From NCBI GenBank assembly GCA_019119225.1, contig DWXM01000017.1, forward strand, positions 22,165 to 86,164: a DNA stretch of 64,000 nt. The letters are read 5' to 3'. Both the position numbers and the translations under genes were made by a program. Of the stretch, positions 14,263 to 53,727 are shown in pieces. Position 1 is the stretch's first letter. Every line of letters begins with the position of its first letter. This stretch comes from Candidatus Nosocomiicoccus stercorigallinarum (GTDB lineage Bacteria; Bacillota; Bacilli; Staphylococcales; Salinicoccaceae). The notes beneath the pieces were generated by a model. The model made no database searches, was not told the origin of the DNA, and saw nothing but the letters and a program-made list of their open reading frames with translations.

Positions 14263-14276
14263 AAAAGGTGTACTAC

Positions 14277-14924
14277 ATGACAAAAATCAACATTGCAATC
14301 GATGGGCCAGCTGCTGCTGGAAAAAGTACTATCGCTAAAATCGTCGCATCAAAACTCAACTATAAATATTTAGACACAGGTGCAATGTACCGTGCGGTAA
14401 CATTATATGCTTTAAATAGTGATTCAAAATTAGATGCGTCGAATATTAAAAACATTACAATTGATTTTGGAGAAAATGGTGAAGTTTTTCTAAATGAAAA
14501 AATCGTTACAAATGAAATTAGATCAAGTCTAGTTACAAATAACGTTAGTAAATTTGCTTCATTAGATTTTGTAAGAGAGTATCTCGTAAAACTCCAACAA
14601 CAAATCGCCCACGATAAAGGTATAGTTATGGATGGTAGAGATATCGGTACAGTTGTTATACCCGATGCTGAATTAAAAATATATTTAACTGCAAGTCCAG
14701 AAATCCGTGCAAAACGACGACTTATTGAAGAAGAAGCAAGAGGAAATGATATTACACTCGATGACTTAATAAAAGAAATTGTCGCACGTGACGAAAGTGA
14801 TATGTCTAGAACACATTCCCCACTTAGAAAAGCTGACTCAGCAATCGAATTAAACACTGATAATATGACAATCGATGAGGTTGCGAATGAAATATTAAAT
14901 TACGCAAAAAAGGTGGACAGTTAA
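14277..14924 (+). CDS. cmk: Cytidylate kinase
   Basis: IAIDGPAAAGKST, DTGAMYRA, DGRDIGTVV. Confidence 0.96.
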   Translation: MTKINIAIDGPAAAGKSTIAKIVASKLNYKYLDTGAMYRAVTLYALNSDSKLDASNIKNITIDFGENGEVFLNEKIVTNEIRSSLVTNNVSKFASLDFVREYLVKLQQQIAHDKGIVMDGRDIGTVVIPDAELKIYLTASPEIRAKRRLIEEEARGNDITLDDLIKEIVARDESDMSRTHSPLRKADSAIELNTDNMTIDEVANEILNYAKKVDS

Positions 14925-15532
14925 TGTTTTACAAAATTATGAAAATATTCGTTACTTTGTATTACAGAGTGGCACATAAAATAACAGTTATTGGAGAAGG
15001 AAATATCCCAAAAGAAGGCCCAGTTCTACTCGCAGCCAATCATAAGTCTTTACATGATCCACCTGCCGTTGGAATTTCTGTAAAGCGTGAGATGTCATTT
15101 TTCGCTAAATCTGAGCTGTTTGAAAATAAACTATTCGGTGCAGCGATTAGAAATTTAAACGCAATTCCAGTAAATAGAGGTAAAGGTGACCGTGCTGCTT
15201 TAAAAACTTCAATTGAGGCATTAAAAGAAGGCAGAATGCTACTTATGTTTCCTGAGGGAACGAGAAATAAAACTGGTAAGGATGATTTAACACCACTGCA
15301 AGAAGGCGCAAGCTTTATCGCAATGAGTGCGAAAGCACCAATTGTACCTGTTGCGATTCGAGGTAGTTATAAAGATAAAAATGGTGTTACAATTATATTT
15401 GGTCAACCAATATATACGAAGCAATTACGTGAAGAAGGATATAAGAGAAAAGATATTACTAAAATTTTAGAAAATAATCTAAATAATTTGTTAAAAGGTC
15501 CATTACACCTTGACAAATCGGATAAATTATAG
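14924..15532 (+). CDS. plsC: 1-acyl-sn-glycerol-3-phosphate acyltransferase
   Basis: NHKSLHD, FPEGTR, PIVPVAI. Confidence 0.88.
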   Translation: MFYKIMKIFVTLYYRVAHKITVIGEGNIPKEGPVLLAANHKSLHDPPAVGISVKREMSFFAKSELFENKLFGAAIRNLNAIPVNRGKGDRAALKTSIEALKEGRMLLMFPEGTRNKTGKDDLTPLQEGASFIAMSAKAPIVPVAIRGSYKDKNGVTIIFGQPIYTKQLREEGYKRKDITKILENNLNNLLKGPLHLDKSDKL

Positions 15533-51594: not shown

Positions 51595-51989
51595 TGGCTA
51601 CAATATATATTGATGCAGCGACTAGACAACATCCACATGTTTCAGTTGGCGCTGTTGTAATAAAAAATGACGATGAAGTTTATGAGTTCACAACACTCTT
51701 TGAAGGAATAGATAATAATGAAGCAGAATGGGCAACTTTAGTATATGCAATTGAGAGATGTATCGAATATAATATAACTGAGGCAATTATTTACACTGAT
51801 TCCCAAATAGTTGTTGATTCAATAGAAAAAAGATTTGTAAAAAATAAGCGTTTCAAAAAGTATTTAGATGAATATATGAAAAATGAAGCTTCGTTTAATC
51901 TATTATTTACTTCTTTTGTAATGAGAAAAAATAACAAACATGCAGATACTCTTGCAAAAAATGGACTGTACAAACATTTAAATAAGTAA
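51594..51989 (+). CDS. RNase HI-family protein (YpdQ/EbsB-like)
   Basis: IYIDAA, NNEAEW, YTDSQ, NKHADTLA. Confidence 0.88.
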   Translation: MATIYIDAATRQHPHVSVGAVVIKNDDEVYEFTTLFEGIDNNEAEWATLVYAIERCIEYNITEAIIYTDSQIVVDSIEKRFVKNKRFKKYLDEYMKNEASFNLLFTSFVMRKNNKHADTLAKNGLYKHLNK

Positions 51990-52005
51990 AGGATTAGTGC
52001 ATATT

Positions 52006-52176
52006 ATGAATCTTCATGAACTTGAGAAAATTCGTGAGTTAGAAGATAACTATTGCAAAAACTGTAAGTTAAAAAAAGTAAACAGAAAATTATATAATAA
52101 ATCCTACGCACATCATTTTTGTATCAATGAATGTTCTGTAGGACTTAAAATAAAAATATATGGAAATAATTTATAA
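52006..52176 (+). CDS. Small zinc-finger protein (zf-C2HCIx2C type), 56 aa, missing from the ORF track
   Basis: MNLHELEKIRELEDNYCKNCKLKK...AHHFCINECSVGLKIKIYGNNL; CxxC...H..CIxxC; alternative in-frame GTG at 51997. Confidence 0.85.
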   Translation: MNLHELEKIRELEDNYCKNCKLKKVNRKLYNKSYAHHFCINECSVGLKIKIYGNNL

Positions 52177-52187
52177 GGAGAATACAA

Positions 52188-53293
52188 ATGAACATTTTAA
52201 AGATCGAACCTACACCAAACCCAAATACAATGAAAGTTGTTTTAGATGAACATAAAGAAGATATGAAATCTTCAACACATACTGAAGTTAGCGATGATAA
52301 TCCTGAATTCATCAATCGTGTACTTGAAATTGAAGAAGTGACAAGTGTATTTTATGCACTAGACTTCATTTCTATCGATAAAGATCCTCGTGCGGATTGG
52401 GAGGCTATCATTCCTAAAATCGAAGCAACGTTTGAAGACGGCGATACAAAAAAGTAGTACCGCACGTCGACGAACATTTCGGTGAAGTAAAAGTAGAGTT
52501 ACTTAAATTTAAAGAAATCCCTTACCAAATTAAGTTAAATGATGGACAAGCTAGAGAAGAGTTAAGTGAAAGATTTGTACAAGCAGTAGAAAAAGCGACA
52601 TTACCGACCGATAACATTATTTTTAGTAGAAAATGGGATGCGCTTGGATTTTATTATGGTGAACTTCAAGACGTTTTAAACGAAGTTACTGAAGAACTTG
52701 AAGCAATATATACTGAATCTCGTTTAGAAGAACTCATTCAAGCTGCAAAAGAAAACAAACAGCCTGAACCGAAGCAATATTTCAAAGTTGATTTAGATAC
52801 ATTTAAAAATGAATCCGACTGGAAAAAGCGTCTCTATTACTTAAATCACTTTGACACACCAGATATATCTGATTACGAATTTTTATCGTACGCGTTAACT
52901 GACGAAAAAGTTCAAATTCGTAGAATGGCAGTGTCACTACTCGCAATGATTGAAAAAGAAGAAACATTAAATTATTTAAAAGATGCTTTACAAGACAAAT
53001 CTGTAACTGTAAGAAGAACTGCAGGAGACGCTTATAGCGATCTCGGCTTTAAATCTGGCTTAAAAGATATCTATCCATTACTTAACGATAAAAGTCCGAT
53101 TGTTCGTTGGCGTGCGGCAATGTATATATATGAAGTTGGAGACGAATCGAGTCTACCGTGCTTGTATAAATATAGAGAAGATTCATCTTATGAATGTAAA
53201 CTCCAAAAAGAACTCGCAATTTCTCGAATTGAAGACGGAGAAGAAGCACTTGGAAGTGTTTGGAAACAAATGGAAATGAGGGATAAGTCATGA
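52188..53293 (+). CDS. cvfC: CvfC/YpgR-like protein (NifU-N + virulence factor + HEAT domains) interrupted by a -1 frameshift at 52448-52457
   Basis: 0-frame [11 protein letters not shown] (NifU-N) stops at TAG 52455-57. The -1 frame is open from 52454 ([28 protein letters not shown]...) into HEAT repeats (VRRTAGD, VRWRAAM) and ends at 53293. Joined product 368 aa. Confidence 0.88.
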
Positions 53294-53727
53294 ACGCATA
53301 CGAAGATTATATGAATGAGCTTGTAGAAGCATATAGAAGAGACTTAACTAAATATAATTTTGAAGAACTAACAACTACTGATGCAGTCGATACTTTCATG
53401 AATGATTTAGACAGCAATGAAACAACTTTTGTTGTGATCAATAGTATGTGTGGTTGTGCGGCAGGACTCGCAAGACCAGCAGCTCGTACAGTTGCATTAC
53501 AAAATCCAAATAAACCTGATCACTTAGTCACTGTTTTTGCTGGGCAAGACAAAGAAGCAACAGAAACAATGAGAGAATATATCGGTCAAGCGCCTTCTAG
53601 CCCGTCAATGGCTCTTTTTGAAGGAAAAGACTTAAAATATTTCTTACCGAGAGAATTTATTGAAGGTAGAGAAGTCGAAGATATTATGATGGACTTAAAA
53701 GATGTGTTTGACGAACATTGTCAATAA
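53290..53727 (+). CDS. brxA: Bacilliredoxin BrxA (YphP)
   Basis: [29 protein letters not shown]. Confidence 0.93.

Follow-up and report, generated by a model that had tools for sequence, protein, structure and literature searches.

A conserved candidate site for programmed −1 frameshifting in the cvfC/ypgR gene of Nosocomiicoccus and related genera

The window analyzed here, a 64,000-nt stretch of Candidatus Nosocomiicoccus stercorigallinarum DNA (contig DWXM01000017.1, positions 22,165 to 86,164), contains a cvfC/ypgR gene that is divided between two reading frames. This arrangement raises the question of whether the gene is broken, whether it is really two genes, or whether it is one gene from which ribosomes produce two proteins. 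The features of the cvfC locus described below are on the forward (+) strand, and positions are numbered from the first nucleotide of the window. ORF1 (52188–52457) begins with ATG 52188 and is preceded by the sequence AAGGAG (52175–52180), which we read as a strong Shine-Dalgarno (SD) sequence 7 nt upstream of the start codon. The 3′ end of ORF1 reads GAT ACA AAA AAG TAG. Its 89-aa product, which would be made without a frameshift, matched the Nfu_N profile (Pfam PF08712, E = 6e-19) over profile positions 2–83 of 88, i.e. essentially the whole model. The proposed shift site, A_AAA_AAG (52448–52454), is in the X_XXY_YYZ phase of the 0 frame and is abutted by the 0-frame TAG stop codon (52455–52457), a ‘shifty stop’ arrangement. 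On the 5′ side the −1 frame is closed by TGA 52433–52435, which forms the 5′ limit of the shift window, and the 0 and −1 frames overlap by only 22 nt (52436–52457). ORF2 (52454–53293) extends in the −1 frame for 279 codons from GTA 52454 to TGA 53291–53293 and has no start codon of its own near the junction. It contains the Virulence_fact domain (PF13769, E = 6.5e-24) and HEAT repeats (HEAT_2, PF13646, E = 6e-15), such that the CvfC/YpgR domain set is complete across the split. Joining ORF1 to ORF2 gives a 368-aa CvfC/YpgR-type protein that is colinear with fused homologs of 369–376 aa, and these homologs already show that the Nfu_N, Virulence_fact and HEAT architecture predicted for the trans-frame protein is coherent. 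The initial annotation of this DNA had placed the heptamer in phase with a stop codon directly after it, had found the −1 frame open for 279 codons, and had taken the unshifted product for a complete domain; the coordinates were confirmed and the profile match bears out the last claim.

The gene order at this locus is a zf-C2HCIx2C ORF, cvfC and a BrxA/YphP-type gene, followed by thyA and folA. The zinc-finger ORF (51997–52176; PF10782, E = 3e-21) is the first gene of the operon and the counterpart of cvfC1 of Staphylococcus aureus, while the third gene (53290–53727; PF06491, E = 4e-52) encodes a BrxA/YphP-type thiol-disulfide protein. PF10782 upstream and PF06491 downstream of cvfC were found both here and at the S. 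aureus locus, in keeping with the layout described for the S. aureus cvfC operon (PMC13009471). The ATG of the BrxA-like gene overlaps the ORF2 TGA (ATGA, 53290–53293), and the sequence GAGGGA lies 8 nt upstream of this ATG. Because of this overlap and spacing, translation of BrxA may be partly coupled to frameshifted ribosomes. At the other end of the operon, the zinc-finger ORF is preceded by AAAGGA (51988–51993), after which come in-frame GTG 51997, ATT 52003 and ATG 52006 codons (51988–52008). The SD spacing suits ATT or ATG better than GTG, and the true start may be ATT 52003 or ATG 52006; a non-canonical AUU start has been reported for S. aureus cvfC1 (PMC13009471).

We examined whether ORF2 behaves as a coding sequence and where its translation could begin. 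Pairwise dN/dS values for ORF2 were between 0.04 and 0.10, with dS at 1.6–2.9 or saturated, and the value was 0.08 in comparisons with other Nosocomiicoccus species. The encoded protein is 59–64% identical across genera and has many invariant residues. From these values we conclude that ORF2 is under strong purifying selection, as expected from the initial annotation, which had seen no decay in this frame. The −1 frame contains no ATG, GTG or TTG for 163 codons, the first being the ATG at 52925 (codon 163), as had also been noted. No SD-like sequence was found at the ORF1/ORF2 junction of this genome, and no start position for ORF2 was conserved across genera. Some genomes do contain a GTG soon after the junction, but this triplet encodes the Val of a conserved FGEV motif, for which other genomes use GTA or GTC. 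The FGEV region immediately follows the junction, and because its residues are conserved and colinear with the fused homologs, they are evidently translated. Public gene calls for the C-terminal part have inconsistent starts, yielding proteins of 229–268 aa, none of which includes Nfu_N. In relatives the short ORF has an annotation of its own as a ‘NifU N-terminal domain-containing protein’ of 89–95 aa, and a search of public annotation returned no joined CDS from the family.

Relatives were collected with a DNA search, a protein search of the whole family (Salinicoccaceae; 45 genomes) and a scan of named genomes, and the loci were compared by script. The family comprises Nosocomiicoccus, Phocicoccus, Jeotgalicoccus, Salinicoccus, Lacicoccus and Corticicoccus. 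Forty-one genomes could be evaluated, as one assembly was fragmented at the locus and three genomes of one genus lacked the gene. In every one of the 41, which represent six genera with 64–78% nucleotide identity, the Nfu_N part and the C-terminal part were offset by −1. The sequence NNA AAA AAR was present in the 0-frame phase in all 41 as well, with a 0-frame stop codon 0–3 codons later, and the in-phase heptamer was always A_AAA_AAG or A_AAA_AAA. When columns were counted with the alignment anchored on the heptamer, positions 1–6 were invariably A within an otherwise hypervariable linker. The codon preceding AAA AAR was ACA, ATA, GTA, GCA, TCA or CCA in these 41 genomes. As the amino acid varies while the third base is always A, the constraint acts on the nucleotide sequence rather than on the protein. 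In many genomes the two frames share as little as 16 nt, and this overlap then contains nothing but the A-run. The length of this run differs between genera: Nosocomiicoccus and Phocicoccus have A6 (A_AAA_AAG), Jeotgalicoccus has A7, and in Salinicoccus, Lacicoccus and Corticicoccus it reaches A9.

An independent assembly that is 99% identical to this one shares both the A6 and the split, as do two species at 78% identity, one of them N. massiliensis NP2; the split was also seen in many metagenome contigs. In these two other Nosocomiicoccus species the 0-frame stop codon corresponding to TAG 52455–52457 is TAA. The 41 genomes are related and the counts do not represent independent events; even so, the variable flanks and saturated dS values show long independent evolution. 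Two further observations were made during this survey. The three genomes without the gene belong to a genus that we designate g3; they are 91–99% complete and contained no cvfC homolog by DNA or protein query, and it appears that cvfC was lost in this genus. Salinicoccus carnicancri Crm has a second frame break in the C-terminal part, near residue 215–222, besides the conserved site; this is probably a sequencing error or decay in one assembly.

Outside the family the gene is fused. An order-wide search gave an open frame of 281–322 aa in every family genome, while in the sister families an open frame of 370–417 aa was found in all but one of the matches listed. Among named genomes, 48 loci from Staphylococcus, Mammaliicoccus, Macrococcus/Macrococcoides and Bacillaceae were fused at 369–376 aa and had no conserved A-run in the linker. 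From these comparisons we conclude that the phylogenetic partition between split and fused genes is clean. The sole exception among the named loci was Staphylococcus microti DSM 22147, in which cvfC is split elsewhere, with an overlap of 103 nt and no slippery heptamer. In contrast to the conserved site, this split is probably a sporadic frameshift or an assembly error.

The cvfC operon of S. aureus (cvfC1-4) and the YpgR-type loci of Bacillaceae resemble the locus studied here in gene order (zinc finger, Nfu_N/CvfC, BrxA-like) and have the same domain set, with identities of 46–55% for the C-terminal part and about 52% for the N-terminal part. They differ in that CvfC is encoded there by a single frame of 369–376 aa, whereas in Nosocomiicoccus and throughout its family it is split by the −1 site. 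The S. aureus operon reads zinc-finger gene, stand-alone Nfu_N gene, fused 371-aa CvfC gene and BrxA-like gene; its stand-alone (cvfC2-like) Nfu_N protein is 51% identical to ORF1 and the N-terminus of its fused CvfC is 52% identical. An extra stand-alone copy of this kind was found at 20 named Staphylococcus loci, and the fused gene occurs without it in Mammaliicoccus, Macrococcus, the S. intermedius group and Bacillaceae. No stand-alone Nfu_N gene is present next to cvfC in this genome; the contrast with staphylococci had been drawn in the initial annotation and proved correct. The presence of a separate free Nfu_N gene and a fused cvfC in one S. aureus operon supports the logic of two products. 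On this comparative evidence, free Nfu_N beside full-length CvfC appears to have two separate origins, a gene duplication in Staphylococcus and recoding in Salinicoccaceae.

The heptamer by itself was dismissed as evidence since the motif is common in this AT-rich genome. It occurs 67 times in the 64-kb window compared to about 49 expected, in agreement with an earlier caution that it also arises by chance. Genome-wide there are 2038 AAAAAAR sites, and a crude set of 1075 long ORFs (genome GC content 34.6%) contains 269 in-phase A_AAA_AAR heptamers in ordinary genes, hence the motif alone proves nothing. At only two of the 2038 sites does a long 0-frame ORF end within 5 codons while the −1 frame remains open for at least 100 codons. 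One is the cvfC site. The other (14906–14912; genes 14268–14924 and 14924–15532) was rejected as a frameshift site because it is an ordinary TAATG overlapping pair, the second gene of which has its own ATG and an SD-like sequence, AGGTGGA. It is this rare geometry, and not the heptamer itself, that sets the cvfC site apart.

Several properties of these genomes bear on whether such a site would be slippery. A similarity search of this incomplete assembly identified a single tRNA-Lys gene, with a UUU anticodon, although a divergent CUU species could be missed by this approach. The same search of four near-complete relatives identified two tRNA-Lys genes in each, again UUU only. A single tRNA-Lys(UUU) is the condition that makes AAG shifty in Escherichia coli (Tsuchihashi and Brown 1992, cited in PMC4066793). 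In the crude ORF set, NNA AAA AAA is three-fold under-represented (observed/expected 0.34). The corresponding ratio is 0.96 for NNA AAA AAG versus 2.7–3.3 for NNT or NNG followed by AAA AAG, and AAG serves as the first Lys codon 44% of the time after NNA versus 17% otherwise. This genome-wide avoidance, together with the switch to AAG after NNA, suggests that such runs are costly elsewhere.

Candidate stimulatory elements differ among the genera. In Jeotgalicoccus (11 species) a 9-bp hairpin, CACCUGAGU...ACUCAGGUG, starts 6 nt downstream of the heptamer. Its alifold energy is −16.8 and single-sequence z-scores range from −1.4 to −3.7. Third-position entropy at codons with a conserved amino acid is 0.20 in the hairpin region compared to 0.90 elsewhere (Mann-Whitney p = 7e-5). 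A hairpin at a spacing of ~6 nt is a classical stimulator and a hallmark of ribosomal −1 frameshifting. The Jeotgalicoccus hairpin would be a frameshift stimulator specific to that lineage; Nosocomiicoccus and Salinicoccus lack it. A shared structure for all genera of the family was considered and rejected, as the alifold signal was strong only in Jeotgalicoccus, weak in Nosocomiicoccus and Phocicoccus, and zero in Salinicoccus. In the genome studied here, no significant 3′ stimulatory structure was detected in the 70-nt segment downstream of the site (z = +0.96). The weak hairpin at 52459–52483 that the initial annotation had put forward did not hold up, having a minimum free energy of −4.1 kcal/mol and a z-score of +1.3, with 184 of 200 shuffled sequences folding at least as well. 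An SD-like element 5′ of the heptamer is absent from this genome, as that annotation had said; the AAGGA found in some relatives (the N. massiliensis group and Phocicoccus) was rejected as a conserved stimulator because it is lost here and its spacing is inconsistent. Instead of a hairpin, the candidate helper in Nosocomiicoccus is the stop codon directly 3′ of the heptamer. A −1 shift can proceed by two-tRNA slippage, or by one-tRNA slippage in the P site with a slowly decoded A-site codon (PMC6771820), and an adjacent stop codon stimulates −1 shifting at some sites (Weiss et al. 1987; also potato virus M, as cited in PMC1851650).

The most likely explanation for these results, which we hold with fairly high confidence, is that cvfC/ypgR in this organism is one gene in two frames that is expressed by programmed −1 recoding to give a short Nfu_N protein and the full-length protein. 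We favor this explanation because of the geometry of the site, the family-wide split with its in-phase heptamer, purifying selection on ORF2, the lack of a conserved start and the single tRNA-Lys species. Ribosomes would initiate at ATG 52188 and mostly terminate at TAG 52455, releasing the 89-aa free Nfu_N domain. A fraction of ribosomes would slip back one base on A_AAA_AAG (52448–52454), either by a tandem slip of two tRNA-Lys(UUU) or by a slip of the tRNA-Lys paired with AAG in the P site during slow decoding of the stop codon in the A site. The slipped ribosomes would resume at GTA 52454 and complete the 368-aa Nfu_N, Virulence_fact and HEAT protein. We infer that the shift is ribosomal in this genome, where the run is only A6, and the favored mechanism is a slip on A_AAA_AAG that is presumably aided by the abutting stop codon.

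The efficiency of the shift can be gauged by analogy. In E. coli a bare A_AAA_AAG yields about 0.3% frameshifting, and at most about 3.7% is reached with the best 3′ context (PMC4066793). Because of these low efficiencies, free Nfu_N probably predominates over full-length CvfC, unless host ribosomes or an unseen element raise the rate; full-length CvfC could be very scarce. The short product may itself be functional, in which case recoding might serve to hold two functional products at a fixed ratio. A neutral scenario accounts for the conservation just as well: a linker that was already slippery may have tolerated the loss of one base, and the slippery site would then have become indispensable.

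Other explanations for the two frames were weighed against this one. The slip could occur during transcription if RNA polymerase adds one A in the A-run, so that some mRNAs carry both ORFs in one frame. Runs as long as A9 are known slippage sites, as in Thermus dnaX and IS elements (PMC5009743), and AAAAAAA is under-represented in all frames of E. coli, which has been attributed partly to polymerase slippage (PMC4066793). The Salinicoccus, Lacicoccus and Corticicoccus sites, with A9 and no conserved downstream structure (alifold energy 0), would suit such a mechanism, and transcriptional slippage may contribute in these A9 lineages, e.g. in Salinicoccus. However, the run is only A6 here, in Phocicoccus and in the other Nosocomiicoccus genomes, which is short and below the length of about 9 A/T at which slippage occurs in the bacteria studied. 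All 41 genomes also have the run beginning at the third codon position, and even the A9 lineages retain NNA, a phase that a polymerase does not require. In addition, the hairpin of Jeotgalicoccus, where the run is A7, is spaced 6 nt from the heptamer, as is typical of ribosomal stimulators; as polymerase slippage has no use for a hairpin, this element speaks for a ribosomal shift. We therefore regard transcriptional slippage as an unlikely explanation for the site as a whole.

It is less probable still that the two ORFs are separate genes, with the C-terminal protein having its own initiation (a non-canonical start or termination-reinitiation) and the Lys-Lys run being merely the tail of Nfu_N. 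Public annotation does show two genes, and the AUU start of S. aureus cvfC1, which belongs to the same operon, demonstrates that unusual starts occur (PMC13009471). Such a start would have to operate in a frame that lacks ATG, GTG and TTG for 163 codons, has no SD-like sequence at the junction and has no start conserved across genera, and the conserved FGEV-region residues that follow the junction in register with the fused homologs speak against it. Separate genes would also leave unexplained both the invariant in-phase A6 behind a variable amino acid and the Jeotgalicoccus hairpin. Thus, the sequence comparisons leave little room for two independently translated genes.

The least probable explanation, with hardly any weight left to it, is a sequencing error or a recent homopolymer deletion that has produced a young pseudogene. 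In a single genome a missing homopolymer A would look identical, a caveat that the initial annotation had attached to its proposal, and sporadic breaks do occur in this gene family, as in S. microti and at the second break in S. carnicancri. These breaks sit at other positions and lack the heptamer, whereas the A6 and split recur in the 99%-identical assembly and the two species at 78% identity, and the split is found in 41 of 41 genomes and many metagenome contigs. The dN/dS of 0.04–0.10 over saturated dS likewise speaks against decay. From this conservation and selection we conclude that error and young pseudogene are excluded; uninterrupted ORFs in close relatives, which had been named as grounds for abandoning the proposal, are the opposite of what the orthologs show.

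As far as we could determine, programmed recoding of cvfC would be a known mechanism in a gene new to recoding, with the dnaX motif, the topology of IS3 OrfA/OrfAB and the logic of copA. The transposase genes of IS3 and IS1 resemble cvfC in that a short N-terminal protein comes from the 0 frame and a fusion from a −1 shift within a short overlap, and also in that stimulators vary between members; 72% of the IS1/IS3 heptamers are A_AAA_AAG or A_AAA_AAA (PMC4066793). They differ from cvfC in belonging to mobile elements, whereas cvfC is a gene of housekeeping type that lies on the chromosome in a conserved operon and is inherited vertically, and at cvfC no pseudoknot or SD stimulator was detected in this genome. 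E. coli dnaX, which encodes tau and gamma, is likewise a cellular gene in which A_AAA_AAG is read by a shifty tRNA-Lys(UUU) and both products have a common N-terminus. Reading of dnaX in the 0 frame gives the long protein and a shift truncates it, the reverse of cvfC, and the dnaX site is flanked by an SD-like element upstream and a strong hairpin downstream, neither of which is detectable at cvfC here. In E. coli copA one gene gives both a full-length protein and a free N-terminal domain, as cvfC would do with Nfu_N. The copA N-terminal domain is encoded as a separate gene, copZ, in other bacteria (PMC5009743, PMC6771820), which parallels cvfC recoding here and the separate cvfC2-like Nfu_N gene in many Staphylococcus species. 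In copA, however, shifted ribosomes make the short product; in cvfC unshifted ribosomes would do so and the shift would be obligatory for the full-length protein. Genes with transcriptional slippage, such as Thermus dnaX (A9) and those of IS elements, resemble the A9 sites of Salinicoccus, Lacicoccus and Corticicoccus, whereas the run in this genome is only A6. A literature search for cvfC together with frameshifting found no paper, and a search combining the genus names of the family with ribosomal frameshifting returned nothing relevant. The GeneTack survey (PMC3711429) and a 2016 review of recoding (PMC5009743) contain no mention of NifU, virulence factor or Staphylococc-.

A more speculative extension, which we consider improbable, is that the site acts as a tunable sensor. 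The slip rate of tRNA-Lys(UUU) would then depend on modification of its anticodon loop (U34 thiolation and related modifications), and hence on sulfur and Fe-S trafficking. If this were true, the ratio of full-length CvfC to free Nfu_N would report and respond to thiol/Fe-S status in a redox operon with a BrxA-like gene downstream, and the abutting stop codon, the hairpin and the longer A-run would represent different operating points.

Few −1 programmed frameshifts are well supported in bacterial genes outside mobile elements: dnaX, copA and a handful of others. The proposed cvfC site would be one that is kept across a whole family of six genera and is obligatory for the full-length protein. 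One slippery site with different helpers, a stop codon in Nosocomiicoccus, a hairpin in Jeotgalicoccus and A9 in Salinicoccus, would constitute a natural comparative system for the evolution of recoding signals. The annotation of about 40 species would also need correction, as a ‘NifU N-terminal domain protein’ and a ‘virulence factor’ with an arbitrary start would be one recoded gene. Finally, the finding may offer a functional hint about the poorly understood CvfC/YpgR family, in that two lineages would independently make free Nfu_N alongside the full-length protein.
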